Below are positions 3,673 to 63,311 of a stretch of 64,000 nucleotides of DNA, piece after piece. The notes below the pieces were generated by a model. That model did not search any database, was not told where the DNA came from, and saw only the letters and a list, made by a program, of their open reading frames with translations. The DNA is taken from IMG/VR virus record IMGVR_UViG_3300034069_001183. One strand, written 5' to 3'. The stretch is from an uncultured virus (IMG/VR IMGVR_UViG_3300034069_001183) (Duplodnaviria > Heunggongvirae > Uroviricota > Caudoviricetes). Position 1 is the stretch's first letter; every line of letters begins with the position of its first letter. A program made the position numbers and the translations under genes.

Positions 3673-4170
3673 CTAACGCTGGCTCATGTTTCTCTCCAGC
3701 ATCTCCTTAAATTTTATCTCTAGCCCATACTTCGACAAAAAACCATACATCTCTTTCTCATTCTTTGGCAAACGACTCATTGCTTGTATGTTTGTCATGT
3801 ATACTGTAATAGCCTTCTTGTTGAATTCACTAAGAAAATCCCCAATACTGAGAATCTTCCTCGTCTTCTTACTATCACCTATGGAAACGCTCATCACACC
3901 ACGCCTAATAATCCTTCTTGCAATTCCTACTAAGCCTGCCGTAATTGACCTACCTGAGATAACAAGATCCCCTAGGTAGTTGTCGGTATCGTCGTCCACT
4001 CTCCTTTCGTCTACTATATCAACTTTGGCCCTCTTTTTCCTTCTTTCATCAGGGACTAATACCCTCTTACTATTATCTTTCTCCTTAACAGACCTCCTGC
4101 CAATATAGATCCCTAACAGTAACAATCCCATTGATACTGATACGGACGTCAACATACCTCGCTTCTCCAT
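3673..4170 (-). CDS. Membrane-anchored hypothetical protein
   Basis: N-terminal hydrophobic helix. Confidence 0.65.
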   Translation of the reverse strand: MEKRGMLTSVSVSMGLLLLGIYIGRRSVKEKDNSKRVLVPDERRKKRAKVDIVDERRVDDDTDNYLGDLVISGRSITAGLVGIARRIIRRGVMSVSIGDSKKTRKILSIGDFLSEFNKKAITVYMTNIQAMSRLPKNEKEMYGFLSKYGLEIKFKEMLERNMSQR

Positions 4171-4254
4171 AATTCCTGGGCTCTACTAATATTCTGAACT
4201 ATCATAACTAATAAATCCTCGTCATTATAATTCATCATGTAAATAAACTGTTAA

Positions 4255-4528
4255 ATAATGTGTCTAAGGTTTTATGACATTCAATAATAAATCTCATGCC
4301 ACCGTACTCCGCTAATAACCTATGAGATAAGTTAATAGCATCGCTCAATCATTAGTTTCACAACTTTAGTGCTAGTTATCCCTCATACCACGTAAAGGTT
4401 ATTGAGATTTAATGAGGGTAAAACAAAAACCACATACTAAAATTGCCTAATATAGTTGACAGTATTGCTCACGTGAAATCTAATCACTAACACCCACTGC
4501 CAACTACTTAAGCGTTAGTATATGATTC
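4255..4528 (-). ncRNA. Structured leader or ncRNA
   Basis: Follows promoter at 4529-4551; stems CATATACTAA/TTAGTATGTG, AGTTGGCAGT/ACTGTCAACT, CCCTCAT/ATGAGGG and ATCTCAT/ATGAGAT; no long ORF. Confidence 0.5.
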
Positions 4529-4551
4529 TACACTAATAAGGGATTTAGGGC
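4529..4551 (-). promoter_or_regulatory. Phage promoter motif
   Basis: GCCCTAAATCCCTTATTAGTGTA. Confidence 0.7.
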
Positions 4552-4682
4552 GTTTCAAGAGGGGGCAGGATAATACAGAGACCGCTTTTGTGACATTCTT
4601 GGGCAAGCTAGGCTCCGCACTCAATTCGTAGCCTCCGTTACACTCGGATTACATCCTCCCTCCACTACGACTACTCCTTGCT

Positions 4683-4830
4683 TCCCCGCCTTCCCGTTGC
4701 CACAATATGAACCCTCCCTCATTACCATTCGGGAGATCATATTGAACCCGGGGAAGGTATTCACTCATTCGTAGCCTCGCCGGCAGAGCACGGCTCAGGA
4801 CTCATATGAGGGTAAACTTGAAAATACCCC
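4683..4830. repeat. Conserved structured element, copy A (upstream of helicase-like gene)
   Basis: Shares identical 31-, 25-, 20- and 22-nt blocks with 60824-60968, with compensatory changes in the stems. Confidence 0.85.
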
Positions 4831-5140
4831 GATAAAGGGCGCATCGCAATTTGGAGATTTAATGGGCGGAGCGCTAGCGGAGGCCATAAATCGATGTCGA
4901 TGGATATATTATCGGGAATACTTCAAGTGTGGTATTTTTACCGAATATATATTATATATGGTAATTGATAGGAAAGTAATAAACAAAATGACATTTTTAC
5001 AATGTATAACAACTAGAAGACTTACTATTGAGATATAGACCCGATGCAAGAGTGACCGAAGGGAGTCTCTTGTGTGCGGGGCTTAGCTTGGGGTGAATAG
5101 CCCAAGTTAGAAGAGAATATTAATTAAAAAATAGAAAACT

Positions 5141-7183
5141 ATGAAGAGAGATGTTATTGTAGTACCTGCAGGATATAGGTACATTAGTGAAATTCCAGAC
5201 TTTAAGCTCAACGACTTTCCTCACATCCTGAACAAACAGATACCAGGATGTGGGTTTACAGAGTATTGTATTACTAACAATGAGAATGTAATACTCTGTA
5301 GTCCAAGAAAGATTCTCTTACAGAATAAGTATGAGCAACATAAGGATGATGTTTTTCTGGTAGTAAATGAATATGACAGTGATCCAGGTACTGATAAAGA
5401 TCTAGTGAAGTCAGAAAAATCAAAGATTATTTCTTGTAAAGATAAGGTCGAAATAGAGAAAGAAAAGCGAAAGTTAGAGACTGCAAAGGGCAGGTTTTTC
5501 TTTGACCTTACCAGAAAATTGACAGGTTATATAAACGGTTGCTTGTTTAGTAATAAACCAATTAAGATACTTGTTACTTACGATTCTTATAGGTTGGTGA
5601 AGGATATAATAAACAATAACTACAGTGAGGTTGACTTTAGGGTAATAATCGATGAGTTCCAAAGTATATTCACAGATAGTAAGTTTAAATCTGATACAGA
5701 ACTGCAATTTGTTAGTAACCTACAGGATGTTCAGAGGGTATGTTATGTCAGTGCTACTCCTATGATCGATAAGTACTTAGATATGCTAGATGACTTTAAA
5801 GACCTACCATACTATGACTTAGATTGGAGTTCACTTGATAATAGTAGAGTAAAACGACCAATCTTGCACGTTAAGACTCTGAAAGCGGTTTTTACAGAGG
5901 TTAAGCCGATCATTGAAAAGTATGTCAATGGTAACTTTGATCATAGGTTTGTAAAGGATCAGGATGGAAAAATCAAGAAAATAGAATCAAAGGAAGCTGT
6001 TTTCTATGTCAATTCAGTTAATAACATTACTAGTATCATCAAGCGCGCAAAGTTAGCACCAGATCAAGTCAATATACTTGTCGCTAATACTAAGGATAAT
6101 ATCAAAAAGATACAGAAGAGATTAGGCAAGGGGTTTGATACTGGTAGAGTACCGCTCAGGGATGAACCAAGGAGAATGTTTACCTTTTGTACTAGAACTG
6201 TTTACCTTGGAGCTGATTTCTATAGTGATAATGCACAGTCTTATATAGTGAGTGATGCTAATATTGACACACTAGCGGTTGACATTTCGCTTGATCTCCC
6301 ACAAATCTTAGGTAGGCAGAGACTAAAAGAGAACCCTTGGAAAGATGAGGCAACACTATTCTTTAGGACGGTGACTAGTGCTAATAAGAAGCCTGAGGAC
6401 GAGTTCAATGAAAAAATGGACAATAAGATGAAATACTCAGAGGGTTTATTGTCAGCATTTGATGAAGTAAGTGCAAAAAATCAAACTTACCTGGCAGATA
6501 AATACCAAGATATGGCAAAACTTATGAACTATAAGAAGGACTATGTAGCTGTTAACCAGGTAAAGAATCCTGATGGTAGTATTAAGCTTGTACCAATAAT
6601 TAATAACTTAGTTAGAGTAGCGGAGATGAGGGCTTATGAAATGCAACAGGTAGATTATGCTGATCGTTTTGCAGTCTTTAATGAACTAGATAAGTTAAAT
6701 AATACTGATGTTAACGATGAGGTATTTAACAAGTTCTTTGAGGAGTTCGATAAGCAGAAGAATAGGAGGGATAAGTTAAAATTATTGTGTGAATCATCTG
6801 GGTTACCTGGATTTTGGACAATTGTAGATAACGTACCTAATAAGAGATTCAAGGAATATATCAATACTTTAGGCGTAGATGGATGTAAGGCACTAGGTTA
6901 CAGAATAGAACTTATCGATAAAAAGCTTAGTGTGTTATCTTTTAGTGAAGACAAGCTAAGAAATACAGTCTACGACACCTTTGAAGTAGGTAAAGCTTAT
7001 AGTAAGGCAAGTATAAAATCAACACTTGCTAAACTTTATAAGAGCATTGGCTATAAGGCTACTGCAAAAGCTAGTGATTTAAGCGTCTATTTTGAACTTA
7101 AAAGAACTTCTGTATCAGAGGGTGGTAAAAGAGTAGAGGGTTTTAAGTTGTTGGAAAAGCTGGATAAACCTTTAGAATCTTAG
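5141..7183 (+). CDS. SF2 helicase-like protein (degenerate Walker A) with C-terminal putative DNA-binding domain; paralog 1
   Basis: Motifs IPGCGFT, SPRKIL, TYDS, DEFQ, SATP, TRTVYLGADF and QILGRQR. Confidence 0.75.
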   Translation: MKRDVIVVPAGYRYISEIPDFKLNDFPHILNKQIPGCGFTEYCITNNENVILCSPRKILLQNKYEQHKDDVFLVVNEYDSDPGTDKDLVKSEKSKIISCKDKVEIEKEKRKLETAKGRFFFDLTRKLTGYINGCLFSNKPIKILVTYDSYRLVKDIINNNYSEVDFRVIIDEFQSIFTDSKFKSDTELQFVSNLQDVQRVCYVSATPMIDKYLDMLDDFKDLPYYDLDWSSLDNSRVKRPILHVKTLKAVFTEVKPIIEKYVNGNFDHRFVKDQDGKIKKIESKEAVFYVNSVNNITSIIKRAKLAPDQVNILVANTKDNIKKIQKRLGKGFDTGRVPLRDEPRRMFTFCTRTVYLGADFYSDNAQSYIVSDANIDTLAVDISLDLPQILGRQRLKENPWKDEATLFFRTVTSANKKPEDEFNEKMDNKMKYSEGLLSAFDEVSAKNQTYLADKYQDMAKLMNYKKDYVAVNQVKNPDGSIKLVPIINNLVRVAEMRAYEMQQVDYADRFAVFNELDKLNNTDVNDEVFNKFFEEFDKQKNRRDKLKLLCESSGLPGFWTIVDNVPNKRFKEYINTLGVDGCKALGYRIELIDKKLSVLSFSEDKLRNTVYDTFEVGKAYSKASIKSTLAKLYKSIGYKATAKASDLSVYFELKRTSVSEGGKRVEGFKLLEKLDKPLES

Positions 7184-8898: not shown

Positions 8899-10431
8899 AT
8901 GGCAAACAGTAAAATTAATGATTCAATTAACATGCGAATTTTCGCTGCGTTGAAAGTGAGTGAACTTAGTGGTGTACCTTTGTTTCTGTTGAGTAATCCA
9001 GGAATTGGTAAGACCACAACAGTTAAGCTTTTTGCAAAAGTTCGCGGGTATGAGGTGGTTGCATTGCACGGTAACAGAATGAGCTCTGAGGCTATTCTTG
9101 GTTATGATTGTGCTCCATCAGACTTAGAGAAGTTTGATTCGGCTAGACACCTCAAGCCTGCATGGTTTAAGAGAATCTTAGAAAATGGAAGAAATGGAAA
9201 GAAGAGTCTACTTTTCTTGGATGAGTTAACAACATGTCATGAGTACGTACAGTCTGCTTTGTTGAGTCTTGTATTTGACAGGGAGATTGATTCAGAGAGA
9301 TTACCAGAGGATACTTTGGTAGTGGCAGCAGGTAATTATGCAAATAACTTGAGTAATACTGCTACAATTCTTCCACCTATGTTGAACAGATTTATGCTAT
9401 ATAATCTCAAGGTGGGTGTTAATGATCTCGACGTATTCTTCAACAAGTTCGAGGGTTCTGCATCAGGTCAGAGGGTTGATTATTTTGATGTCCTCTATAA
9501 GCAGATGCAGGAAATTGATTCACAGGAGAAGAAGTTTAGTCCAGAGAAGCTTGCTATGATTGGTGAGCATTTCGAGAAGAGTATCAAGTTTGTAACAAAG
9601 TCATTGATGTCAGGTGGTGAAAGGCCAGTTGATCTTGGTGTGACGGAGCTGCAGACAATCTACTCTGATATTGATGGTGATAATGACCTTCCAAACTTCA
9701 TATCACCTAGATCTGCTTGTTACGCTAGAGATATTACCATTGCTACTTACATTGCGTTTGGTAGTGCTGGTATTAATTCAGACAACTATAAGAGCATGAT
9801 GTATGGTCTTATTGGTATGGGTCTCAAGCGTAGTGGTAATGGTGAGGTAATCAAGACTAATATTGTTGATGATTACGTTAGGGCCATGATCGATGTTGTG
9901 AATGATGTTGAGAAGATGAACAATGATAAGATCCCTGAGTATGAGAAATTCTACAGAGATATTATCAATAGTGCAGTAGACGGAAAATTGGATATCGCTG
10001 CTATGAATGCAAGTTCAAATAAGATCAGGGAAATGATTGATGACCCGGATGTTAAGGGTATTGATCGTCCTATGGATCCAGGTATTGTTCAGCAGTTCTG
10101 TGAAATCTTCAGGACATCAGGTAAGAAGCTAGTTAGTGGTTATAAGATTGACCCTAGTGGTGAAAATGTAGCTAATGTAGTTGTGGAGAAATTCGCAGGT
10201 GACATTAACTATTGGAACAATCTTGCAACTCTTATGGTGTCATTGAAGGCGCTTGTAAGTAATACCAAGTTCTCATACGATTCTAGTATTAAGACTGATA
10301 TTAAGAATACACAGTCTGAGTTGAGGAAGATCAGTTTCAAGCTTAAGACAGTTAGAAAGTCTTACCTGAACAATGATGATAAGGCATTATCTGAAATCGT
10401 CCCAGAGGTTAAGAGCTGTGTTGATGAGTAG
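8899..10431 (+). CDS. MoxR-like AAA+ ATPase
   Basis: Walker A NPGIGKT, Walker B LLFLDE, AAGN sensor and NRF arginine finger. Confidence 0.85.
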   Translation: MANSKINDSINMRIFAALKVSELSGVPLFLLSNPGIGKTTTVKLFAKVRGYEVVALHGNRMSSEAILGYDCAPSDLEKFDSARHLKPAWFKRILENGRNGKKSLLFLDELTTCHEYVQSALLSLVFDREIDSERLPEDTLVVAAGNYANNLSNTATILPPMLNRFMLYNLKVGVNDLDVFFNKFEGSASGQRVDYFDVLYKQMQEIDSQEKKFSPEKLAMIGEHFEKSIKFVTKSLMSGGERPVDLGVTELQTIYSDIDGDNDLPNFISPRSACYARDITIATYIAFGSAGINSDNYKSMMYGLIGMGLKRSGNGEVIKTNIVDDYVRAMIDVVNDVEKMNNDKIPEYEKFYRDIINSAVDGKLDIAAMNASSNKIREMIDDPDVKGIDRPMDPGIVQQFCEIFRTSGKKLVSGYKIDPSGENVANVVVEKFAGDINYWNNLATLMVSLKALVSNTKFSYDSSIKTDIKNTQSELRKISFKLKTVRKSYLNNDDKALSEIVPEVKSCVDE

Positions 10432-10518
10432 TTAAGTTAAGATAGGACTTTGGGTTGGTACTATGATTATCACTCAAAGTCTTATTGGTTCCGAATTATA
10501 ACTAACAAGAAATCAGCA

Positions 10519-12303
10519 ATGAAAACAAGACAAGAACTCGAATTTATAGAGAACCTAGTTAAGAGGGCCTATAATAATCGGAACTGGGGAAACATACTTA
10601 AGGAAAAACTTGATAAGCCTTATAATCCTCAGAATCCAGAACTAGGTTATTCATACAGGCATCAGTCATTTGATGGTGAAGGTAAAAAAGAGTTCACTAC
10701 CTATAATGTTGTTTGTGCACGTACTGGAGTTAATGATATTGACTATCGTGTAAAGCTTCATGAGTACGGACACATCTATCTAGCACATCTTGACGGTATC
10801 TATGAGGAAATGGATACTAGAATTTGTAATGTGCTCAGGGATTACAGGGGTGAACTAATAGAGACAGTTAATAAAGGCTGTGGTATCAATTTTGGAGATA
10901 AATTGATTGAGAGGGTTATTGATGATCCAGTACTTAATCATAGTCTTCACAATATTGCAATGGACATGGAGGTAAATACTAAGGTCCTAAGCAAAGATGA
11001 TGTGGAGGTTATGGAGAGTGAGTTGTCAAAAATTCTTCCCGATACACTTAGCGATAAACTTAAGGAACTTCTCAAGACAACTACAGATGAGGAAGTCAAG
11101 AAGAAGATAGAAGATCGTCTCAAGAAAATGGGAAATGAGGCTAAGATTAAGTTTATCCTGCCTGAGAGATATCACATGTCAGACGGTACACCTTTCCCAG
11201 ATAACGCTGACTATCTTGAGTATCTTATTCTGATCGTTAAGAATCTTGATCAGTTTATTAAGATGATGATCAGTATTAGCAGAGGTGGTAATGGTGATAC
11301 TAGTGATGTTACTTCAGAGGATGTCCAGGATGCACTTGGTGATGAAAATAGTGCAATAGATAACTTGGATGACCTTATGGAGCAGATGGGTATGTCTGAT
11401 GGTCAAGGTAAGAAGCAAGATCAAGGACAGATTGGCCAAGGTTCAAGTAATGGTCAAGAAGGCGGTGAAGGAAATGATGCTAGTAATTCCGGCGGTTTCA
11501 AGGGTGACTCTGAGAAAACCGAAAGTGGCAATCAGGGAACTAGAGATACTGACTTTTCTGAACTAGAAGGTGGTACTCATCATGATCACTGTACAGACTC
11601 TAGAGATGACGCTGATAGAAAAAGAGAGGTTGGCGAAATTAAGGCTGGCGGTGGAACTGGCTGTAGTGGTAGTAGAACATCTAGTGCAAAACGAAAGGTG
11701 AGCAATGCAGATCCAGTCGACGAAGCAATAGATCAAGTACTCAGGAACTATAAGAATAAGGTAGTTAAGAAGGAGATTAAGAAAGATATGATGTGGAACT
11801 ATAACAAAGGCATCAATCGAACTGTTATCGCCCCAGCTATCTTACCTAGAGTTACAATTAAGGATGAACCGAAGATTGTATACTTGATCGATGTTAGTGG
11901 TTCTATGGATACTGAACTGGTTGATAGAGTCTTGAATACTATTGCAAGAAAGATGAAGTCAATTGGTAGAGGTCTTCACTATGACATTATCAGTTGGAGT
12001 ACAGAGCTAGAGGATCATTTTAGAGACATTGACCCAAGAAAAGGTATTCCACATATCTCAATGGGTGGTGGTACTAGAATGGCGAAGGGTATCAAGTACT
12101 TCAGAGATCACTACAAGGACGATTCTATCTTAGTTGTTATATCAGACTTTGAGGATTACTTAGAGGAATGGCAACAAGTAGAGAGGACAATGAATAAGTA
12201 TGCACTCTATGGTTTCAATTATGGCCGTAGTAATTATAATGTAGATTTTAAGAACCTGATCGTTAAGAACTTCAATGTGAGTTATAAGGGTCCAAGGTAT
12301 TAA
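10519..12303 (+). CDS. DUF2201-like HExxH metallopeptidase plus VWA domain protein
   Basis: HEYGH; NIAMDMEVN; Gly/Gln/Ser-rich linker; MIDAS motifs DVSGS, GGGT and ISD. Confidence 0.8.
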   Translation: MKTRQELEFIENLVKRAYNNRNWGNILKEKLDKPYNPQNPELGYSYRHQSFDGEGKKEFTTYNVVCARTGVNDIDYRVKLHEYGHIYLAHLDGIYEEMDTRICNVLRDYRGELIETVNKGCGINFGDKLIERVIDDPVLNHSLHNIAMDMEVNTKVLSKDDVEVMESELSKILPDTLSDKLKELLKTTTDEEVKKKIEDRLKKMGNEAKIKFILPERYHMSDGTPFPDNADYLEYLILIVKNLDQFIKMMISISRGGNGDTSDVTSEDVQDALGDENSAIDNLDDLMEQMGMSDGQGKKQDQGQIGQGSSNGQEGGEGNDASNSGGFKGDSEKTESGNQGTRDTDFSELEGGTHHDHCTDSRDDADRKREVGEIKAGGGTGCSGSRTSSAKRKVSNADPVDEAIDQVLRNYKNKVVKKEIKKDMMWNYNKGINRTVIAPAILPRVTIKDEPKIVYLIDVSGSMDTELVDRVLNTIARKMKSIGRGLHYDIISWSTELEDHFRDIDPRKGIPHISMGGGTRMAKGIKYFRDHYKDDSILVVISDFEDYLEEWQQVERTMNKYALYGFNYGRSNYNVDFKNLIVKNFNVSYKGPRY

Positions 12304-15243: not shown

Positions 15244-15725
15244 TAATTAATATTTACACCGACGGATCACACCTAGACAAGCAGAATAATGGTAGACTTG
15301 GATGTGGTGGTGTTATGGTGCAAGATGATAGTGCAGGTAAGTATGGGACAATCCTAGATAAGTATAGTCAAGAATTAACCCCAGACTACATGCAAGCTGA
15401 GTATGGCAGTAAAAATTGTAGTAATCCAACAGCCGAAATGATTGGAGTACTTATGGCCCTCTCTAATTTTAATATCCCAAGTAATGCAAGTAAGGTAGTA
15501 GTATTTGCAGATTATATTGGTGTTAGAGAGTGGTGTACAGGCAAGTGGGGAATCAAGGAGCCATACATCAAAAAAGTAAAAGGGCAGATAGACGACGTAA
15601 TAAAAAGAAAAGGTCTCACAGGGAAGATTAGTTTTGAATGGGTAAAAGCACACCAAAGAACTATTAACCGAGACTCATACTGGAATAATTACGTCGACCT
15701 ACTCGCAAAAGGACAAACTAATTAG
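15240..15725 (+). CDS. rnhA: Ribonuclease HI
   Basis: YTDGS, SNPTAEM, D, WVKAH, NNYVDLLA. Confidence 0.9.
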   Translation: MIINIYTDGSHLDKQNNGRLGCGGVMVQDDSAGKYGTILDKYSQELTPDYMQAEYGSKNCSNPTAEMIGVLMALSNFNIPSNASKVVVFADYIGVREWCTGKWGIKEPYIKKVKGQIDDVIKRKGLTGKISFEWVKAHQRTINRDSYWNNYVDLLAKGQTN

Positions 15726-15730
15726 AAGAA

Positions 15731-16288
15731 ATGATTGTATTAAGAACAAAGCAATATTCATCATTCTGGCAGAAACTTAAGGGTAACCCAGACTTGAAAA
15801 ATGTATTGAGAACCTGGGATCCAAACTATGTTAATCCTGAGGTAAAGAAAGAACCATTATTTAAACATTTCCCAAAACAGGTACTATCATGGTTATCTTT
15901 CCTCTATGAAAATGTGAGAGATGAGAACGATAGCTATATGTATGGATTCTTAAATAGTGTTACTGTATTTTCTTATGAGAGTATCTTAGATCAGCTCAGT
16001 GGTGGTCGTGCAGAATATACATCAAAGAGAAATGATGGAGTTATTAAGCTGCTTAGGATTCCTTTTTCAGAGACTGCAGACTCTTTCTTAAACTACCACG
16101 TTGATGAAAATAGAGTAACATTAATTCCAGAATCAAGTAGGCTTGACTTATCTGGTATGATTGCTGATAAAATTTCTAAGGGGTTGTTCGGAGGGCTTGA
16201 TCAATTACCATCTAGACGTGAAAGAGACCCTGAGAGATTGGTAGATACGATTAAGAAGATGTTTATTAATAAAGTACCAAAGAAGTAG
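15731..16288 (+). CDS. Hypothetical protein
   Basis: ORF. Confidence 0.6.
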   Translation: MIVLRTKQYSSFWQKLKGNPDLKNVLRTWDPNYVNPEVKKEPLFKHFPKQVLSWLSFLYENVRDENDSYMYGFLNSVTVFSYESILDQLSGGRAEYTSKRNDGVIKLLRIPFSETADSFLNYHVDENRVTLIPESSRLDLSGMIADKISKGLFGGLDQLPSRRERDPERLVDTIKKMFINKVPKK

Positions 16289-29355: not shown

Positions 29356-30492
29356 CTACTCCTCCTCGTGTGCTCCGTTTTCCATCAACCACTCTTCGAT
29401 CAGCGTCTCAGTTACTTCATTCTGTTGACTAGCCTTCTGAATACTCTCCCAGATAGCTTCGAACTGCTTATCTGTGTATTCCATCTTAGACTTGTCACGA
29501 TCTCTGAGAATCTGATCAACTATTTTCTGGATAGTCTCAGCATCTTCTGGATCTGCTGCAGCTTTTACTTGTACTGTGAGCTGTCGGATGTTATACTCCT
29601 TCTTAACATCTTCATCATCGCCCATTACAAACTCCTTAACAGCTGAGCCAGTCTTTTTGAGCACCTCCTTAGCACCACCAACCAAGTCTTCTCTCGTTGA
29701 CTTAGGATTCTTCACAGTTTCTACAAAGTCCTTAATACTTTCTTTAGGACTCTTAGACATTTCACGAGCATCTTTGACTGCTTCGGTTAGCTCTTCTTTT
29801 ACTACATCTGCCATTATTGCAGCTTTCTTCAAAAATTTTCTAATTTTATTCATACTAATTGATTTATATTCACTAATAAGGGTTTTAGCGGTTCTCTTAG
29901 TTTCTTGTACCTCGCAGTAGTTGTCAGAATAAAACCTATTACAAAGTATCCTATCAAGGTTCATGGCGATTAATTCTGCTAGCTTATCATGACCGAAACA
30001 GAATTCCTCAGGGTGTCTTAGTATGTACTTAAGATCAAATAGTACATACTTCTCTACTTCCCCCGATTCACCTCCTCTGGTAATGGTAGACAATTCATTT
30101 CTACTACTCATTATAAACCTAAGCATTTCATGTTCTAAGATTGTCATGTACCTCAGAGTGATGTTTCCATTGTTAGTATTAGGTCCATCATCTAGTCCGC
30201 AAAAATGTAGGTCCCCAGGATTTACAACTAGTCCTGTCTCCTCTAGTAATTCCCTGACTGCACCTCCTCTAATATACTGGTCTGCAAAATCATAGTACCC
30301 ACAAGGCATACAATACAGGCCTACATTATCAGGGCAACCAGGACCTCTCTTTTCAAACAAGAATAATAAGTTTTCAGTTGGATCCATGCCCTTATCATTC
30401 CAACAACACACTGAACATACTGTGGCAATGCTAGGAGAAAACCACCTAACCTTACCATCCTCCTTACAAGTAAACGGTTTATTTGTTTCCAT
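29356..30492 (-). CDS. Nudix hydrolase fused in-frame to a second helical protein (internal start 29853)
   Basis: Nudix box GGAVRELLEETGL; internal promoter motif at 29870-29891. Confidence 0.75.
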   Translation of the reverse strand: METNKPFTCKEDGKVRWFSPSIATVCSVCCWNDKGMDPTENLLFLFEKRGPGCPDNVGLYCMPCGYYDFADQYIRGGAVRELLEETGLVVNPGDLHFCGLDDGPNTNNGNITLRYMTILEHEMLRFIMSSRNELSTITRGGESGEVEKYVLFDLKYILRHPEEFCFGHDKLAELIAMNLDRILCNRFYSDNYCEVQETKRTAKTLISEYKSISMNKIRKFLKKAAIMADVVKEELTEAVKDAREMSKSPKESIKDFVETVKNPKSTREDLVGGAKEVLKKTGSAVKEFVMGDDEDVKKEYNIRQLTVQVKAAADPEDAETIQKIVDQILRDRDKSKMEYTDKQFEAIWESIQKASQQNEVTETLIEEWLMENGAHEEE

Positions 30493-31090
30493 AATTTTTT
30501 GAAATATACTCTAATTTCTCTTTAAACACTAGGGGACTTATTCCTGCCATTATTACCACGGCGGGAACATGTCTCTTACTCATGTCCTTCACAAATAACC
30601 AGGGAACAGCACCTAGGTTAATATCTTCTACTGACCAAGGACAATTACCTCCGCCGTAATCCTTTGGCAGATTATATTCTAGTGGGTATGTGCTGAAATA
30701 ACCCTCATCATCCTCACTACCAACAAATGCAAAAGGTACCTCTATTATATCACCTTCAGAATTTTCATATGGTCCCTCTGCATTACAATCATAGGGTGCA
30801 TCATTCCAGTCATCACCCCATTGTTCTAGGAGGTCAAGTCTTGTAAAATATGCAGAGTGTGTTCTACTGGTTTGATCATATTCTGGATTAGGTAGGTCTT
30901 TGTATACTACCTTAGAATTATACTGCATCACTCCATACTCCTTTACGAAATCCTTGTACTCCTGAGATTCAAAGTACTGTTTTGTTGATTCAGTAGGTCC
31001 GTATATGGTAGGGCTAATTTCATCAATATAACAGAGCTTGTAATTATTCAGGCTCTCATCAATCTCACTTAATAATACTGTCTTACTCAT
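30479..31090 (-). CDS. Hypothetical phage protein
   Basis: QWGDDWNDAPYDCNA motif. Confidence 0.65.
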   Translation of the reverse strand: MSKTVLLSEIDESLNNYKLCYIDEISPTIYGPTESTKQYFESQEYKDFVKEYGVMQYNSKVVYKDLPNPEYDQTSRTHSAYFTRLDLLEQWGDDWNDAPYDCNAEGPYENSEGDIIEVPFAFVGSEDDEGYFSTYPLEYNLPKDYGGGNCPWSVEDINLGAVPWLFVKDMSKRHVPAVVIMAGISPLVFKEKLEYISKNYGNK

Positions 31091-31917
31091 GGGAATACTT
31101 GCTTAAATGGTTTAATATTACCGCCCATTATATTTCGCTTACTGTTTTTATCCTCCAGTATTGCAAAACATATCTGACTAAACATATTCTCAAACTCAGA
31201 TTCACTTAGGACTTCTCTGAATGATTCTGCTGTCTGTAGTGGATTATTACCATATGCACCACAACCAAAGGCACCTAGTACTAATTTTCTATGTCCCTCC
31301 AGTAATGCTATCCTAAGTATTGTTCGTATCTTACCTTTCAATACTGTCAAGTCCTTCTCCATCATTTCACCATTACTATTTAAGTCTGGTCTCTTAATGG
31401 CTGGTACTGTGATAATTGAGCAGGTGAAAGGGTCCGATAAGTAGCTGTAAGACGTAGCGGCTCTAAATACTGTTACGTTCCTACTATAAATCCCACCAAA
31501 CTCAGATATTGGATATGCTTGCCTTACTAGTTTATCACCAAACGTACCTAGCCGCTTTTGATCACAGCTATATAAGGACCGAACTAAACTGCTCCTCCTA
31601 CACAGCTCTTCTTCCTGTGCTTTAGATCCTCTCTCAACACCACCACCAGGACAATAGAAAGATGCCATATTAAGTACAGCACAGTCAGGACCTAGTTTTT
31701 TAGCAGCGAGTAGTGTATCTGTGTTCTCTACCCAAATCTTAGTAGGGCCAGAGGGAGCATAGTTTTTATTTTTCACACTCAATGTCCTCTTATAGTATCT
31801 AGTAGTTGGTAAGGTTAATTCATGCCACTTACCGTCAGAATCTAGATATCCTTCATTACTAATTACATCACAAGTGTCTTTAAAAATCTCTACTAATTCA
31901 CTTTTAGATTTTGTCAT
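31087..31917 (-). CDS. TIGR02452 family / bacterial PARG-like macrodomain protein
   Basis: LNMAS..PGGG...AQEEELCRRS and LVLGAFGCGAYGN. Confidence 0.85.
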   Translation of the reverse strand: MTKSKSELVEIFKDTCDVISNEGYLDSDGKWHELTLPTTRYYKRTLSVKNKNYAPSGPTKIWVENTDTLLAAKKLGPDCAVLNMASFYCPGGGVERGSKAQEEELCRRSSLVRSLYSCDQKRLGTFGDKLVRQAYPISEFGGIYSRNVTVFRAATSYSYLSDPFTCSIITVPAIKRPDLNSNGEMMEKDLTVLKGKIRTILRIALLEGHRKLVLGAFGCGAYGNNPLQTAESFREVLSESEFENMFSQICFAILEDKNSKRNIMGGNIKPFKQVFP

Positions 31918-36622: not shown

Positions 36623-37414
36623 ATGAGTAATGCAATTTTTAGATTCTTAGGTTATTATACTGATTACGAGTATAAGATCCAAGGAATGAAGGACTATAAG
36701 AAAGCTGGTAATACTGCTTGTTTTGCTGAGGCCCTTCAAAGAATGAGATCTAATTTTGAAACGAGTGAAAAATTTAGCGGGTCTTACAAAATCAAGATCT
36801 ATAGAACACAGTATCAAATTAGTAAGAGTAAAAGCAATTTCTGCCTACTTAGTAAGAAAGAGATCAGAGATTATATAAATATTCTCAAGAAAGTAGTTAA
36901 ATTCAGGTGGAGATTCTTGAAAGACAATAAAGACTATTTTACTGTCAAAGCGGATATCCAGGAGGGTTATCATACAACACATAGGGCAGTTCTATTTTGG
37001 ATTAGAAACTTATACGAGTTCCCATTTAATGTACTTGTGAAAGATGCTGAGTTATTCAGAAAAGATCACAGGTATAGTTATATTGGTGCTCTCAACATAC
37101 ACAGACTTGTTTATATATCTAATTGTCTTAACGAGGATTGTCATTCAATGTTTAAGTATCGCTATAATAGTCTTGGGACATTGGATGAATACCAGAGAGC
37201 GTTTAACAATGACAGAGAACTCTACGTGTCTGATACAATCCGTGATATTGCTAACAGTATTGAAATTGAGGGACCAATCGGAACTGCTTGTTCTGATCTA
37301 GATAAACTTAAGTCTCTGGAATTTTGGACAGAACTAGAAGATGACTGTCCACAAAGAAAAGATAGGTTTGAAGTGTACAGTAAGAATTTAAAACATTATA
37401 CTAGAAAAAGATGA
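36623..37414 (+). CDS. Hypothetical protein (amidoligase operon)
   Basis: ORF overlapping the next gene. Confidence 0.65.
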   Translation: MSNAIFRFLGYYTDYEYKIQGMKDYKKAGNTACFAEALQRMRSNFETSEKFSGSYKIKIYRTQYQISKSKSNFCLLSKKEIRDYINILKKVVKFRWRFLKDNKDYFTVKADIQEGYHTTHRAVLFWIRNLYEFPFNVLVKDAELFRKDHRYSYIGALNIHRLVYISNCLNEDCHSMFKYRYNSLGTLDEYQRAFNNDRELYVSDTIRDIANSIEIEGPIGTACSDLDKLKSLEFWTELEDDCPQRKDRFEVYSKNLKHYTRKR

Positions 37415-38049
37415 AAGTATTTGTAGTAGGATCAGCAGTTTATTATGCTAAGTTTCTGAAAAATGTAGAACTAGTAGAGAAACAAGAAGATGCTGATGTG
37501 GTATTGTTTACAGGTGGTGAAGATGTTGATCCAAGCACCTATGGACACCGCCGACATCCTCGCACATATTCAAATATACTGAGAGATGAGGAAGAAATCG
37601 AAGTGTTCAAGAAGATTCGTAATGATCAGCTTGCATTTGGTATCTGTAGAGGCTCTCAGTTCTTATGTGCAGTTAACGGCGGAAAATTGGTGCAAGACTG
37701 TAACAATCATGCAATAGGTGGCACACATGAGATAACTGATGGAAAGTCTGTGTACGATATAACATCAACCCATCACCAAATGCAGTATCCATATAACCTG
37801 GGAGACTCTGAGTATGATGTTCTCTACAAGTCACTAGAAAATAGGTCAAACTATTATGAGGGAGACGATGAAATAGATAGTGACAAGATAGAGAAACTTG
37901 GAGAGCCTGAGATTGTACTGTATAAGGTAGAGGGAAATCCAGTATCTCTTGCAGTACAGGGACATCCAGAAATGATTCCTACATCACCAGTTGCAGAGAT
38001 GATTAGTGAGTTGGTTGAAAAATATAGTAAGGAGGTTAAGAAAGTATGA
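37411..38049 (+). CDS. Class I glutamine amidotransferase (peptidase C26-like)
   Basis: FTGGEDVDP, GICRG, HHQ and QGHPE. Confidence 0.85.
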   Translation: MKVFVVGSAVYYAKFLKNVELVEKQEDADVVLFTGGEDVDPSTYGHRRHPRTYSNILRDEEEIEVFKKIRNDQLAFGICRGSQFLCAVNGGKLVQDCNNHAIGGTHEITDGKSVYDITSTHHQMQYPYNLGDSEYDVLYKSLENRSNYYEGDDEIDSDKIEKLGEPEIVLYKVEGNPVSLAVQGHPEMIPTSPVAEMISELVEKYSKEVKKV

Positions 38050-38837
38050 GACTGAGAAACATTACAGTAGGTGCAGATCCAGAGCTTTTTATAGTAAATG
38101 AAAAGACTGGAAAAGTAGTATCATCAATCGGTATTATCCCAGGTGAAAAGGGAAATGCATGGAAGTCTGATGATATGCCAGAGGGATTTGGTATTGAGGT
38201 AGATAATATCCTAGGCGAATTCAACATTCCACCTTGTAAGACTAAGGAGGAATTCATTAACAATATCGAATATATGAAAGATTATATTGATAGGTTTGTT
38301 AAGGAGAAGAACCCAGACTTAGGAATTCAGTGTATTGCGTCAAGAGAAGTAGATGAAGATCAACTACAATCAGATGAAGCTAAGCTCTTTGGTTGTAGTC
38401 CTGATTTCAATGCTTATACTGAAATGGAGAATGAGAAGCCTGATGGTGAATCAACAAATCTTAGGTCAGCTGGTTTTCATATTCACATTGGGTATGATAA
38501 CAATGACATAGATACTTCAGTCCAGCTTGTTAAGTACTTGGATCTCTACTTAGGGGTTCCAGCAGTAATAGATGATCCCGACAAGAAGAGAAGATCACTT
38601 TATGGTAAGGCAGGTTCATTCAGACTTACACATTACGGAGTTGAGTATAGGTCATTATCTAGCGCTATGATGAAGGATAAAAAGACCCTCAAGAAAGTTT
38701 GGTATAGAATTGTATCAGCCATAGATGCATTCAATTATGAGAAAGAACTCCCATCATCTAGTGCAGTAAGAAAAGCGATTGATAACAGTTCAGTTGAGAT
38801 GGCTAAGAAATTAGTTGAACAATTTGACCTAGTATAA
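38046..38837 (+). CDS. phiEco32-like COOH-NH2 ligase type 2
   Basis: GADPELF, DN..EFN, FGCSPD, RSAGFHIH, RRSLYGKAG and YGVEYR. Confidence 0.85.
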   Translation: MRLRNITVGADPELFIVNEKTGKVVSSIGIIPGEKGNAWKSDDMPEGFGIEVDNILGEFNIPPCKTKEEFINNIEYMKDYIDRFVKEKNPDLGIQCIASREVDEDQLQSDEAKLFGCSPDFNAYTEMENEKPDGESTNLRSAGFHIHIGYDNNDIDTSVQLVKYLDLYLGVPAVIDDPDKKRRSLYGKAGSFRLTHYGVEYRSLSSAMMKDKKTLKKVWYRIVSAIDAFNYEKELPSSSAVRKAIDNSSVEMAKKLVEQFDLV

Positions 38838-38841
38838 AGTT

Positions 38842-56005: not shown

Positions 56006-56019
56006 AATCTTTTTTATAG

Positions 56020-56415
56020 TTAAATAATACCTTTTTCTACTAACAATCTCTCAACCTCTGTCCAATCGATGAAAGGACGAACGCTAATAGAGAGATCGGT
56101 TTTCAATGGAGCACCTAAGGCAGCATCGTCAATATAGAGATGTGCAAAAATCTTCCTACTACTTGTCCATCTGTTCTGTGTCAAGTTCTCATTAACACCT
56201 ACCAATGGAATACCTCGCTGCGCAAACCAATCCACAGCTTCCTCTAAGTAGTTTGGATCACCTGGACTTGTTGGCTCTCCTCTCATTGTATAGAGAATAA
56301 GCTCATGTCCTGCCTCAACTAACCTCTTAAGAACTGGCACTGCACCAATATCTTTGCCAATCTCTGGAAATTCATGACTAACAACAGTACCATCAAAATC
56401 AATACAAATCTTCAT
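56020..56415 (-). CDS. HAD-superfamily phosphatase (BT0820-like)
   Basis: IDFDGT, LYTMR and K...YIDD. Confidence 0.8.
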   Translation of the reverse strand: MKICIDFDGTVVSHEFPEIGKDIGAVPVLKRLVEAGHELILYTMRGEPTSPGDPNYLEEAVDWFAQRGIPLVGVNENLTQNRWTSSRKIFAHLYIDDAALGAPLKTDLSISVRPFIDWTEVERLLVEKGII

Positions 56416-57686: not shown

Positions 57687-57835
57687 CATATATAAGAAAT
57701 CGAGGCCTTTTCAAACTGCATTAATTTTCGAGGCCTTCATACTTCCTACACTAATAAGAAATCAAGGGGATCTCAAACGCCCTTATTTCTTAAGGACTAC
57801 GGCAAAAAAAATAAGCTAAGGTATTACCCCCTAGC

Positions 57836-59466: not shown

Positions 59467-60731
59467 ATGGTTTACTTTTTGGAAACGCTCGCTGGTGATA
59501 GCGTACACGAGCCGGTTATCGTAGTTAAGATTGGATTCTCTGAGAATTTTAAGAAGAGACTAAAGGATTATAAGTCTACTAATTATATTTTCAGAGTAAT
59601 GAAAGTTCTATCTGATAAGAGCTTTGATAGGAAGTGTGAAAAAATACTACATTACTATTTAGACACTCTATTGGTAAGAGATATAAGAATCAGGTTGAAG
59701 TTTTTATATTAGATGATGAAGTAGAAAAGCTTATAGAAAGTATCAACACTAGGGAAGATATCTTAAGATTGCAGGGAAAATTGAGTGGTAAGAGGCAAAA
59801 TTTTAATGTTTACTTAAGAAAATCAAGTGGTAGGAAACGAGATTTTAATAAACATCTGAAAAGGTATAAAGGAATACTACTTAAGAATTGGAGGTTAATA
59901 GAAAAATCTTATAGTGGGGACCTAGAGGGATTAATAAATCATTTCATTGATTCCGGATTAGATGATATATTTAAGTTCATAAAAGACTATTATAACGTTG
60001 ACCTCTTAGATTATACCGACGACGAAAAGGGACTACTTAACGAATTCTTTGATAAGTACAATAAGATAGAAACAAGGCAGAAAAAGTTGAAGTTCTTGTG
60101 CGAAAAACTTCCGACTTTTAATGAACTGGAGAGAACTTGCATATTGGAAAGTGTTACAGAGACTCTTTTTCAAGAATACATTGAGATACTAGGTCTTGAT
60201 GAGTGTAAAGCACAGGGATATAATACATCATTTCTAAACAAGAAATTGAATATCGTAGGGTTTGATGAAACTCTGCTAAATGATACTATATACAATGAAT
60301 TTAAAGTGGGGCATTCTTATTCAAACCCTTACATTAAACAGAAGCTAGGTGAGATATATAAGGATAATAATTACAGAGCTACCGCAAAAGCAGTTGATCT
60401 GGATAAGTACTTTGAAACTAAACATGGGAGAGTAGTAAAAGATAAAACAGGTAAGTGGGTAAATGGAATCTGTATACTGAGTAAGAAAACAGATAATGTA
60501 GAGTTTGATAAAGAAAAATTAAAGGATGATATTTATAACGAATTTATAGTAGGTAATTCTTATTCAACCACTTATGTAAAACAGAAACTAGGGAAAATAT
60601 ATAGTCAGAGGAGTTACAGAACTACTGCAAAATCTGTCGATCTAGATGAGTTCTTTAACACCAAACGTAAGAGTGTTAAAGATGAAACAGGTAAGTGGAT
60701 AAATGGAATCTGCATAGTTAGTAAGAAATAA
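59467..60731 (+). pseudogene. T5orf172/GIY-YIG-like nuclease fused to a duplicated helicase-type C-terminal domain; frameshift near 59665
   Basis: VKIGFS...RL..Y; removing 2 nt at GACAC joins ORFs 59467 and 59769; C-terminus resembles 61245..63311. Confidence 0.65.
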
Positions 60732-60823
60732 ACATAGGGAGTAGGTTAGGCTGTTTGTCCTACTCTTTTTTTTTCACTACGAAGCTCTTAATATTATAGG
60801 GTCGGGTAAGCCTGCAGCTCCCC

Positions 60824-60968
60824 TCCCCGCCTTCCCGTTGCCACAATATGAACCTCCCTCGTTACCACTCAGGAGAACCCTATTGAACCCGGGGAAGGTA
60901 TTCACCTTATGTGGCGTCGCCGGCAGAGCACGGCTCGACGGTCCTAAGGGTAAACTTGAAAATACCCC
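60824..60968. repeat. Conserved structured element, copy B (upstream of helicase-like gene)
   Basis: Homologous to 4683-4830. Confidence 0.85.
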
Positions 60969-61244
60969 TGAAGTACATCTGTGGTTAGGATACAGGAAAA
61001 TACCGAGCGCCAGCGAAGGGATTTTGTATGAACTCTACAGATGAATATAGGGGTGACTATTTCCAAAATCGGCATATATTCTTTACGTACTCTGTCAAAA
61101 AATTCAATGAATTTGGTAAAATTGTAGTAGTGGTGTTCTAAAAGACTTATCTATGTAATAGATAGGGGCATTAAGCGGGCCGCTGCCAAAAAAGGCCGCT
61201 TAAGCCCGGAAACATATTCATTAACATTTTAAAAATAATTTATT

Positions 61245-63311
61245 ATGACAGAAGAAGGAGCAATCGTAGTAGAAGTACCTAAGGGATATAGGTACATCTC
61301 AGAAATCCCAGACTTTAAAATTAATGATTTCCCACACATCCTGAACAAACAAATACCGGGATGTGGTTTCACAGAGTACTGTATTGACCCTGCTAAAAAC
61401 AGTGAAGATATAATACTATGTAGTCCTAGAAAGATCTTACTAAAAAATAAGTATGATCAACACGTAGGAGATGTATTCTTAGTTGAAAATAAGTATGAAC
61501 AAGAAACAAGGACTGATAAAGACCTTACAAAGATAGAGAAAGAGAGGGGTGGAAGTATCTTTACAGAGGAAAAAGTGCCGACAAAAGAAGAAATTGAACA
61601 AGCTGAAAAAGAAAAGGTAGGTTTCTTCAATGGTCTTAGGGAGGACTTGAAGAAATATATCATAGGCTGTAGATTTCTCAAGAAGCCAGTTAAAATCTTA
61701 GTTACCTACGACTCATTCAGGATTGTCAAGGATATTATTAAGAGCATTGATGAACTTGATGATTTTAGGGTGATCGTAGATGAGTTTCAAAGTATCTTCA
61801 CAGACAGTAGATTCAAACCCGACACAGAAATGGTATTCGTTAAGAACCTACAAGAAGTGAAGAAGCTCTGTTATGTAAGTGCAACTCCGATGATGAAAAA
61901 GTATTTAAGTCAGTTGGAGGAATTTAAAGATCTTCCCTACTACGAACTAGATTGGGAAGCGCTTGACCCTGATAGGGTAAGGAAGCCGAAACTTACTCTA
62001 AAAGGTATGAAGGCTATGTATACAGTAGTTGGTCCTATTATTAAAAAATATCTAGAAGGTGATTTTAGCTATAGATTTGTAAAGGGTGCTGGTGGCGGTG
62101 AGGTAGTAAAGGTAGAATCAAAGGAGGTTGTATTCTATGTTAACTCCGTCGCCAATATTACTAACTTAATAAAAAGAGCAAAATTAGGACCTGATCAAGT
62201 AAATATCTTAGTAGCCAATACACAGGATAACGCAAATAAGATAAAGAAAAGGTTAGGTACTAAATATAAGATTGGTACAGTTCCATTAAGGGATGAACCA
62301 AGGAAGATGTTTACTTTCTGTACCAGGACTGTTTACTTGGGGGCTGACTTTTATTCTGATAATGCACAGACGGTAGTACTTAGTGATGCCAACCTAGAAA
62401 CCCTTGCAGTTGATATTTCTCTAGATCTTCCACAAATTTTAGGTAGGCAAAGGCTTAGAGAAAATCCTTGGAAAGACGAAGCAACTGTTTATTTCAGGCA
62501 CCTACTGGATAAAAATAAGATAAACGAAAAAAGTTTTGACGAGAGAATAGACTGGAAGCTTAAGAAGACTGGTAACCTGCTTACTATATTTGACGAGACA
62601 AGAAATGTATTGAAGGGAGATTTATCAGAGGCATACCAAAAAATAGCAAGAACCTTCAATTATAAGGACGATTATGTAGCAGTGAATGTAGAAGAAGATC
62701 CAGAAACGGGAGGTCCAAAACTTATACCTGTTCTAAATAACTTAGTACTGGTATCAGAGAGACGTGCTTTTGATATGCAACAGACAGAGTATGCAGATCG
62801 ATTTACAGTCTTTAATGAGGTCGGTAAGGTATCTACTATTGAAGCGATGAGTGATAAAGTATCTGAGTTCTTCGAAGAGTATGACAAGATAGATACTAGG
62901 CAGAAGAAGTTAAAATTCTTGTGCGAAAGTTATAATAATTTTGACAAGAGTGAGTGGAGATATATACTTGACAACTTAACAGAACTTCACTTTCAAGAAT
63001 ATATAGAAGTACTGGGTCTTGATGAATGTAAGGCGCAGGCATATAATACTTTCCTACTTAATAAAAAACTTGATATCTTGAGTTTTGATAAGAATTCATT
63101 AAAAGAAGATATCTATAATGAATTTAAAGTAGGCCAGTCTTATCCAAACCCATACATTAAACAAAAACTAGGAGAAATATATAACAGGAAAGAATACAGA
63201 GCTACACCAAAGACTACTGATCTGATTGAGTACTTTGATATAAAACAGAAGAAAATAAAAGATGAAACTGATAAGTGGGTTCATGGTGTTGTAATCATAA
63301 GCAAGAAATAA
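61245..63311 (+). CDS. SF2 helicase-like protein (degenerate Walker A); paralog 2
   Basis: Same motifs as 5141..7183, colinear over the full length. Confidence 0.75.
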   Translation: MTEEGAIVVEVPKGYRYISEIPDFKINDFPHILNKQIPGCGFTEYCIDPAKNSEDIILCSPRKILLKNKYDQHVGDVFLVENKYEQETRTDKDLTKIEKERGGSIFTEEKVPTKEEIEQAEKEKVGFFNGLREDLKKYIIGCRFLKKPVKILVTYDSFRIVKDIIKSIDELDDFRVIVDEFQSIFTDSRFKPDTEMVFVKNLQEVKKLCYVSATPMMKKYLSQLEEFKDLPYYELDWEALDPDRVRKPKLTLKGMKAMYTVVGPIIKKYLEGDFSYRFVKGAGGGEVVKVESKEVVFYVNSVANITNLIKRAKLGPDQVNILVANTQDNANKIKKRLGTKYKIGTVPLRDEPRKMFTFCTRTVYLGADFYSDNAQTVVLSDANLETLAVDISLDLPQILGRQRLRENPWKDEATVYFRHLLDKNKINEKSFDERIDWKLKKTGNLLTIFDETRNVLKGDLSEAYQKIARTFNYKDDYVAVNVEEDPETGGPKLIPVLNNLVLVSERRAFDMQQTEYADRFTVFNEVGKVSTIEAMSDKVSEFFEEYDKIDTRQKKLKFLCESYNNFDKSEWRYILDNLTELHFQEYIEVLGLDECKAQAYNTFLLNKKLDILSFDKNSLKEDIYNEFKVGQSYPNPYIKQKLGEIYNRKEYRATPKTTDLIEYFDIKQKKIKDETDKWVHGVVIISKK

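Follow-up and report, generated by a model that had tools for sequence, protein, structure and literature searches.

A constrained, folded non-coding element upstream of two paralogous SF2 helicase-like genes in a giant phage: a possible sense-strand regulatory leader

In DbpA and YxiN, a DEAD-box core is tethered by the C-terminal domain to one specific RNA hairpin, whereas PriA is a superfamily 2 (SF2) replication protein that recognizes hairpin-rich single-strand start sites. The herpesvirus origin-binding helicase UL9 has, in addition, a C-terminal form, OBPC, which offers a parallel to phage open reading frames (ORFs) that hold only a tail domain (see below). The locus considered here lies in the 64,000-nucleotide stretch (hereafter, the window) of the uncultured virus record IMGVR_UViG_3300034069_001183 (Caudoviricetes), where a non-coding element occurs in two copies, A and B, each upstream of an SF2 helicase-like gene (helA and helB, respectively). 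Copy A has a minus-strand gene (3673-4170) on one side and the plus-strand gene 5141-7183 on the other; copy B is framed by 59769-60731 and 61245-63311. Structured cis elements next to helicase-like genes are known as a kind of arrangement; this particular element, its composite layout and the multi-copy protein family lacking the Walker lysine are undescribed in the sources searched. Full-text literature searches returned no description of the protein family or of the element, and the passages of PMC7824862 that matched were irrelevant.

The element is under strong constraint, keeps its architecture while the sequences of its helices change, stands at a fixed position and in a fixed orientation, and is absent from the catalogues. 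It consists of a multi-helix core (P1-P6) and, after it, a long hairpin, P7-P8, in which tandem G.A forms an internal loop. We tentatively read it as a sense-strand regulatory leader or upstream non-coding RNA with competing pairings and a protein-binding G.A hairpin, a reading that is weighed below against several others. The original prediction, made from the letters of the window, had placed the two copies correctly: from the end of the core to the start codon is 309 nt in A (4832 to 5141) and 277 nt in B (60968 to 61245), and the four sequence blocks said to be shared are all identical in A and B. The GC enrichment that it reported is equally real, as the two elements are the strongest of five GC-rich islands in the 64 kb (100-nt GC of 0.58-0.59 versus ~0.36 overall). 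Its size estimate of ~148 bp was too small, since the element extends past 148 nt into the long P7-P8 hairpin and, in copy A, into a helix that closes the leader. The two non-coding cores are ~85% identical and the sequence flanking them on either side does not align between A and B; the encoded proteins are 57% identical over 680 aligned residues, which agrees with the proposal that element and gene were duplicated as a unit and puts that event long ago.

Nucleotide diversity, computed over 10 orthologous B-type loci (Table 1), carries the argument for function. Two non-coding blocks, the core and a proximal block closer to the gene, are constrained to the level of second codon positions, and the diversity of the element is ~7-fold below that of neutral-like sites. 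Being far more constrained than its flanks, the element is therefore functional and no recent plain duplicate; such a duplication, named beforehand as the competing outcome, is ruled out by the unalignable flanks and by a core far more constrained than the spacer. On the A side, the only diverged ortholog (L054) is 98-100% identical from 4171 to ~4930, a near-identity that reflects recent shared ancestry and makes it uninformative for the core. Downstream of ~4930 its identity is 58-66%, returning to 94% over the 3' arm and hairpin at 5071-5120.

The conserved unit begins at the 5' tail in every B ortholog, regardless of the upstream gene. Within the core, P3 and P3b carry a TACC loop, P5 and P5b surround the invariant CGCCGGCAGAGCACGGC, and P6 is formed by GGGTA/TACCC. 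P6 and P7 are mutually exclusive in copy B because P7a takes the entire 3' strand of P6, a C-run, whereas in copy A the overlap is 2 nt. The lower stem of P8 is wholly different in A and B; above it stands a tandem purine loop (GA/GA, GA/GAA or GGA/GGA), topped by a G-C helix of variable length (2-3 bp) and a loop that reads GCTA, GCCA, GAA, CGT, CGC or TGT. A kink-turn is defined by a three-nucleotide bulge 5' of tandem G.A pairs. This motif was considered and rejected for P8, where the tandem GA/GA is present but the 3-nt bulge is not, the only extra base being 0-1 A on the 3' strand.

A second conserved block, made up of a AAGACTTA box and hairpins with CTTAGCTT, lies ~50-130 nt before the start codon. 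In copy A this proximal block comprises two hairpins and a 3' arm (5070-5090) containing CTTAGCTT, and is 72-73% identical to the equivalent region of two paralogs (L006, L007). In copy B it comprises a CTAAAAGACTTAT box, an 8-3-8 palindrome (CTATCTAT-GTA-ATAGATAG) and a hairpin ending in GCTTAAGCCCGG. The 3' arm in copy A belongs to an inverted repeat of 21 nt, 86% complementary, which forms 17 consecutive pairs (two of them G.U on the plus strand) and encloses 445 nt; when 4596-5100 is folded to minimum energy (z -3.9), this 17-pair helix closes the leader over its whole 490 nt. A word related to AAGCTAAGC is found at the 5' end of the leaders of paralogs L013 and L007, and AAGCTAAGC-type words at the 5' end together with CTTAGCTT-type words near the ATG recur in the leaders of L013, of L007 and of two paralogs in a distant genome (G002). 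The spacer between the two blocks exists in two haplotypes among B orthologs, one of which contains a small hairpin with a covarying stem (GAGGC/GCCTC, GAGAC/GTCTC or CAGAC/GTCTG).

Base pairing is supported by compensatory differences of several kinds. The swap of AT..AT for GT..AC around TACC, singled out in the original prediction, is real: P3b is A-U in seven and G-C in six of 13 distinct copies. Columns 59/72 are C-G, U-A or G-C, with a C.A mismatch in four copies; CTTC/GAAG in one contig (L002) replaces the CTCC/GGAG of other copies; and a double change from U-A to C-G occurs in the P8 stem of L074 (columns 208/228). In P4 and P5 the differences between A and B keep complementarity, with indels. 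Two further pairs of variants proposed to preserve pairing do so, with qualifications: CCT/AGG versus CGT/ACG stays paired, but with the register shifted by one base, and CTCAT/ATGAG versus CCTTA/TAAGG keeps a helix of 4-5 bp, but with indels and a 1-2 base overlap with the next hairpin, GGGTA/TACCC. The folds of P7 and P8 agree between the two copies despite differing arms. Over the whole structure 92.7% of cells are paired, versus 38-48% when the partners are slid by one column. Five pairs changed on both sides, where shuffling gave 2.8 on average and equalled the observed count in 6 of 500 trials; cells changed on both sides number 18 versus 6.0 (0 of 500). The covariation is modest because the copies are close, and is supportive rather than decisive because related sequences can beat such shuffles without structure; P1, P2, P5b and P6 are invariant and thus give no evidence for or against pairing. 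In the covariance-model check that had been suggested, a model of 14 copies recovered exactly the two window sites (E 1e-102 and 1e-71), as did nhmmer.

Table 1. Coordinates and helices of the two element copies and the genes beside them, with nucleotide diversity among 10 B-type loci
Feature	Position	Strand	Remarks	Diversity
SF2 helicase-like gene, copy A (helA)	5141..7183	+	680 aa; winged-helix-like tail	
SF2 helicase-like gene, copy B (helB)	61245..63311	+	688 aa	
ORF of C-terminal-domain repeats, then hairpin and T-run	59769..60731	+	320 aa; tblastn	
Copy A long-range helix, 5' arm	4604..4624	+	inverted repeat; partner 5070-5090	
Copy A conserved core P1-P6	4688..4830	+		
Copy A extended hairpin P7-P8	4816..4928	+	fold z -2.9; architecture as copy B, other helix sequences	
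Copy A P7-P8 helices	4816-4822/4922-4928, 4828-4835/4909-4916, 4842-4846/4898-4902	+	apical hairpin ~4856-4895	
Copy A tandem G.A internal-loop motif	4869..4881	+	GC mini-helix, GCTA loop	
Copy A variable AT-rich spacer	4929..5012	+	T-run 4937-4941; 58-66% identity to L054, flanks 94-100%	
Copy A proximal conserved block	5013..5115	+	fold z -3.8	
Copy A proximal box	5013-5025	+	CTAGAAGACTTAC	
Copy B invariant 5' tail	60801..60828	+		0.040
Copy B conserved core P1-P6	60829..60967	+		0.046
Copy B P1	60829-60836 with 60892-60899	+		
Copy B P2	60843-60847 with 60881-60885	+		
Copy B P4	60905-60909 with 60945-60949	+		
Copy B extended hairpin P7-P8	60963..61055	+	fold z -5.2; RNAalifold consensus	0.102
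Copy B P7-P8 helices	60963-60970/61048-61055, 60976-60984/61035-61043	+	apical hairpin 60990-61029	
Copy B tandem G.A motif	61005..61017	+	GC mini-helix, GCCA loop	
Copy B variable AT-rich spacer	61056..61134	+	two ortholog haplotypes	0.347
Copy B proximal conserved block	61135..61215	+		0.044
Final 29 nt before ATG				0.320
Codon position 1				0.087
Codon position 2				0.058
Codon position 3				0.329
P7a			A CCCGATAA/TTATCGGG; B TACCCCTG/TAGGGGTG	
P7b			A CATCG/CGATG; B CATCTGTGG/CTACAGATG	
Tip			apical hairpin P8 in A and B	

Copies outside the window were found by word searches in a near-identical strain (G001), in the IMG/VR contig L002 and in metagenome loci. An 18-mer matched 27 metagenome loci, 10 of which carry the element, the other 17 having a short match at the word or none; IMG/VR word scans found the element only in two contigs of one sample. 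At all 11 copies outside the window (one on a truncated contig), an A or B ortholog begins 430-480 nt past the start of the element, with 80% identity to helA after the A-type copy and 84-97% to helB after the B-type copies. Because these copies are orthologous loci, the linkage between element and gene is inherited and not independent evidence. By nhmmer the core is absent from 19 of 21 IMG/VR loci that encode relatives of the protein, the other two being the A and B orthologs, and a covariance-model search of 170,654 bases gave two matches, both in the window and none before other paralogs. The element is therefore no general companion of the helicase family, contrary to the linkage to the whole family that had been put forward for testing (0 of 19 other paralog loci), and the core is private to the A/B lineage.

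Many paralogs nevertheless have a GC-rich patch a few hundred nucleotides upstream, made up of elements that differ from the A/B core. In G002, an independent 305-kb record, two of seven GC-rich islands sit 269 and 290 nt upstream of two of the six full-length paralogs. These two islands have a common conserved sequence of their own, unlike the window core, and their leaders share a CTTAGCTTCG word ~50-60 nt before the ATG. Iteron-like direct repeats, 2-3 in number, 22-69 nt long and with 74-101 bp spacing, occur in the AT-rich leader spacers of other paralogs (L093 8823-8977; L007 1094-1330; L095 1654-1749) and are absent from both window leaders. At gathering scores no Rfam 15 family matched anywhere in the window; at E <= 10, the regions 4400-5150 and 60700-61300 gave chance-level matches of 10-19 bits only, none on the element core. 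The phage GenBank collection gave no DNA match. An exact 19-mer of the element in three Methanosarcinaceae metagenome-assembled genomes of GTDB (L079-L081) was set aside as chance, as L079 looks coding and the covariance model matches at none of these sites.

The window derives from a giant phage, as contigs of 330-347 kb carry close homologues of the helicase-like protein and the metagenome contigs with matches measure 341-346 kb. The protein belongs to a large family of roughly 4,900 members (1,665 representatives of clusters at E <= 0.001), with ~6 copies per genome of about 300-345 kb. An AlphaFold2 (AF2) model built from a 96-sequence alignment (pLDDT 91, pTM 0.87), which replaced a discarded model from 14 close sequences (pLDDT 49), confidently predicts an SF2 fold of two RecA domains. 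Foldseek gave a probability of 1.00 to Brr2, BLM, UL9 and Hjm in the PDB, and VIA gave Z 14-17 over ~310 residues to DEAH and DEAD helicases. The best solved neighbours by VIA Z are RNA helicases (Prp2 16.9, eIF4A 16.4, DbpA 16.0), with many ties. The origin-binding protein (OBP) of herpes simplex virus 1 (HSV-1) ranked eighth in the PDB search, tied with Brr2 and BLM, and fell outside the VIA top 50. In a viral structure library, after one true homologue, giant-virus proteins annotated as replication origin-binding protein lead (ranks 2, 5, 7, 11 and 13; E 1e-10 to 6e-13) and herpesvirus OBPs follow at ranks 38 and 42, the origin-binding matches reaching a TMq of only 0.35-0.39. By sequence, Pfam, PHROGs, PADLOC and NCBIfam gave no match for the protein, and the PDB gave one weak match (18.6 bits) with a shallow profile and none at E <= 10 with a deep one.

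Across the 96 sequences, D171 of motif II is invariant and E172 nearly so, and S204-A205-T206 and Q388/G391/R392/R394 of motifs III and VI are invariant or nearly so. Walker A departs from GxGK[ST], the family consensus being PGCGFT with F replacing K, and K32, seven residues upstream of this motif, is invariant; the P-loop could be unusual, or the protein could be independent of ATP. The original prediction of an SF2 helicase with a C-terminal DNA-binding domain stands for the SF2 fold. For the tail it holds in a weaker form: the last 70 residues of the AF2 model follow the order helix-strand-helix-helix-strand-strand, a winged-helix topology, the term being used here for topology only. The ESM Atlas gave no usable match for the tail. 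ORFs with only this tail domain, single or in tandem, adjoin several paralogs (window 59769-60731; G002 56010-56603 and 224308-224775; G003 15263-15790; G004 182951-183436). In the window ORF, residues 90-240 and 236-320 each align by tblastn to the tail of helB orthologs, and a terminator-like hairpin, read from the sequence, lies 3' of the ORF at 60740-60775.

Several features bear on which strand is folded and in what form. Every hairpin variant keeps GA/GA or GGA/GGA on the plus strand while the apical helix and loop vary, and the minus-strand equivalent of the motif would be U-C mismatches. Upstream of the paralogs L006, L007 (whose leader has three), L013 and possibly L021 the G.A motif likewise lies on the strand of the gene, with exceptions elsewhere: L015 has one motif on the other strand, and L011 has two that are downstream of its gene. 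The two G.U pairs in the long helix of copy A also speak for the plus strand. One-sided changes that preserve a wobble pair occur in five places on the plus strand versus three on the minus strand, and the element keeps a constant sense orientation relative to its gene. On balance RNA is the probable folded form, with single-stranded DNA (ssDNA) unlikely and duplex protein-binding sites quite improbable. Under the leader reading that we favour, the element would be the distal folded part of a composite control region before two paralogous SF2/winged-helix genes. It would act as sense-strand RNA, either as the far 5' part of a long leader or as a short upstream transcript with occasional read-through, and alternative pairings would set the amount of full-length translatable mRNA. 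One competition would be for the C-run, which may pair in hairpin P6 or in helix P7; another, in copy A, would be for the proximal block, which may pair with the 5' arm or fold locally into hairpins. A protein could plausibly dock on the G.A hairpin; it may be the winged-helix tail of the encoded protein itself, in which case the genes would be autoregulated. The RNA nature, the strand, the switch and the binding partner are in this sense inferred, however well constrained the element is.

A number of observations weigh against a sense-strand RNA. The consensus fold of the B-type leader is weaker on the plus than on the minus strand (-97.2 versus -103.3 kcal/mol), as is that of the core plus P8 (-33.2 versus -45.5 kcal/mol); folding energy thus failed as a means of choosing the strand, the minus strand folding as well or better in consensus and single-sequence predictions. 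The apical loops belong to the GNA and GNNA types, GNRA is seen in no tetraloop (GCTA, GCCA, GTCA), and one form is GCGAAGC, a heptamer better known as a very stable DNA mini-hairpin. Consensus scans for promoters and terminators gave nothing above background, the terminator scan finding none on the plus strand, and the Bacteroidota-type TAnnTTTG is not enriched upstream of genes relative to background. A search for RNA runs that contain the locus returned none. One sequencing run, of a kind only guessed to be RNA, gave a single 255-nt contig (4252-4506) and none over the element or the gene, and is uninformative on expression. The T-runs that follow P7 in many orthologs could mean a separate transcript rather than an mRNA leader. 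The covariation, although supportive, comes from few and closely related copies. Moreover, two B-type element copies (L058, L069) contain the A-type P2-P3 tract (CCCTCCCTCATTACCATTCGGGAG-ATCATATTG), which shows gene conversion between A and B copies within a genome; this inflates, and partly explains, the similarity of the two.

In a different view, the protein would be a UL9-like origin-binding helicase and the upstream region, with its GC-rich folded strand, AT-rich spacer and proximal block, its origin. The element would then work as ssDNA, R-loop or primer RNA, and each of the ~6 paralogs would have its own origin. We regard this initiator-origin module, the main rival of the leader reading, as doubtful; several points fit it, none of them decisive. 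Origin-binding proteins of giant viruses head the viral fold search after one homologue, with herpesvirus OBPs included, and the HSV-1 OBP is at rank 8 in the PDB search. In a 305-kb genome the paralogs stand 35-90 kb apart; three of the six in G002, and copy A in the window, come first after a divergent strand switch; and the two deepest minima of cumulative GC skew in the window coincide with the two cassettes. Long direct repeats in the AT-rich spacers of other paralogs (2-3, with 74-101 bp spacing), the ORFs of the C-terminal domain only beside several paralogs, and GNA/GNNA loops, which suit DNA hairpins, point the same way. The skew, however, follows gene orientation and so cannot discriminate, and the other three G002 paralogs lie inside co-directional gene blocks. 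Pfam Herpes_ori_bp gives no match at E <= 0.01, the TM-scores are only 0.35-0.39, and the top VIA neighbours are RNA helicases. Iterons (at least three copies of at least 8 nt) are missing from the A and B regions of the window, where repeat counts gave one 8-mer family in three copies in A (shuffled mean 0.3), none at 9 nt and none in B; a branched fold with long-range closing helices would also be unusual for an origin. The fuller proposal is that giant phages of ~300-345 kb from gut or rumen use multi-origin replication, with each of ~6 diverged, Walker-lysine-less UL9-like paralogs firing a private origin directly upstream and the element being a strand-specific folded start site (ssDNA or an R-loop-forming transcript). 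This is rather unlikely; if true, it would give phages a counterpart to the multi-origin chromosomes of archaea, whose initiators are linked to their origins.

If the element is RNA, it need not be a leader. It could be a stand-alone small RNA gene of ~250-330 nt ending at the T-run after P7 and acting in trans, either as partner or ligand of the helicase-like protein in a ribonucleoprotein or through pairing of its 5' arm with the proximal block of the neighbouring mRNA. A T-run follows P7 in copy A, in L054, in L013 and at seven of 11 B-type loci, no constraint is seen in the spacer that comes next, the conserved unit has an abrupt start within ~10-20 nt of an upstream stop codon at five loci, and DbpA bound to hairpin RNA is among the closest solved folds. 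However, window copy B has no T-run after P7, the plus-strand terminator scan was negative and no promoter was found, and we consider such a gene improbable. Read as a metabolite riboswitch, the same RNA would have P1-P6 as its aptamer and P7-P8 with the T-run as a terminator-type expression platform, which would account for invariant junctions beside variable peripheral helices and for the mutual exclusion of P6 and P7. That the core is limited to one narrow phage lineage and one gene family, that a conserved G.A motif within the supposed terminator suggests protein binding, that ~190 nt with further conserved hairpins separate the platform from the start codon, and that Rfam has no match make this very unlikely. 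The region could lastly be a mobile cassette or element end, or a neutral recent duplicate, and both are extremely unlikely. Mobility is suggested by two copies in one genome, by the 21-nt inverted repeat flanking 445 nt in copy A, and by small variable genes near copy B. But relatives keep both flanks of copy B, where only the small neighbours vary (a gmk-like gene, a MUG113/GIY-YIG-like ORF and tail-domain ORFs), and the A-B distance is kept, at 56.1 kb in the window versus 58.8 kb in ODKB01000002.1, a contig of 345.8 kb. With flanking synteny conserved the cassette is not mobile, and the self-mobilising module originally envisaged is not supported; the inverted repeat is missing from copy B, so the locus does not have the features of a transposon or miniature inverted-repeat transposable element either. 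A neutral duplicate is difficult to reconcile with proteins only 57% identical, with unalignable flanks and with an element ~7-fold less diverse than neutral-like sites.

Other parts of the window gave observations of their own. Intergenic DNA to the left of copy A (4252-4506, 4374-4424) has 11-nt words in common with the element (GAGATTTAATG, ATGAGGGTAAA) and a possible hairpin, and the single contig of the sequencing run mentioned above spans exactly 4252-4506. A region of ~730 bp (57104-57836) has no ORF of at least 80 aa, is 94-100% conserved in translated comparisons with L058 and L066, and may be a cluster of non-coding RNAs. It includes a tRNA-like gene on the minus strand (57137-57216) with a four-base anticodon loop call, 'atta', the only match of the tRNA/tmRNA scan and far from the elements. 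A gene cluster at 37411-41447 encodes a glutamine amidotransferase, a phiEco32-like COOH-NH2 ligase, a second amidotransferase and an amidoligase, which suggests a pathway of nucleotide or DNA modification or of peptide ligation. A NUDIX protein adjoins a microbial-type PARG (ADP-ribose processing) at 29356-31917, and downstream of helA, at 8899-12303, a MoxR-like AAA ATPase is found together with a VWA partner.

The element offers a handle on an unknown core function of giant phages, whether as a new structured regulatory RNA, and thus a candidate structured RNA outside Rfam 15, or as part of the first sequence-defined candidate pairs of origin and initiator. Among known systems, the autoregulatory leader of the E. 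coli DEAD-box gene deaD/csdA is alike in that a helicase-fold gene stands behind a very long, structured and conserved leader. There is no homology between the two, the phage region consists of two conserved blocks split by a variable spacer, and the phage leader is only predicted to be transcribed. DbpA and YxiN (structures 7pmq and 7pli) share with the phage protein a two-RecA core and a C-terminal nucleic-acid-binding domain, with a Z of 16.0, and the conserved hairpin is a candidate ligand by the same comparison; unlike theirs, the phage tail is winged-helix-like and not an RRM, and the phage hairpin lies beside the gene and not in rRNA.

The PriA primosome assembly sites of phiX174, the single-strand origins of plasmids and the GCGAAGC mini-hairpins resemble the phage region as orientation-specific, hairpin-rich and GC-rich non-coding DNA with GNA loops. 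They differ from it in their setting, as the phage genome is large and double-stranded and a single-stranded state of the region is hypothetical. UL9 is comparable in having separate C-terminal-domain-only proteins and in being a neighbour in the fold searches. The likeness to HSV-1 UL9/oriS extends to an SF2 core with a C-terminal sequence-specific binding domain and to a structured, partly AT-rich non-coding region beside the gene. Solved structures (9hgj and 9hgi) and papers (PMC12543377, PMC13483431, PMC13261067) exist for the herpesvirus system. Unlike UL9, the phage protein has no family match at the level of sequence, lacks the Walker lysine and is present as ~6 paralogs per genome; and unlike oriS, a short palindrome with binding boxes, the phage element is a branched fold of ~250-490 nt.

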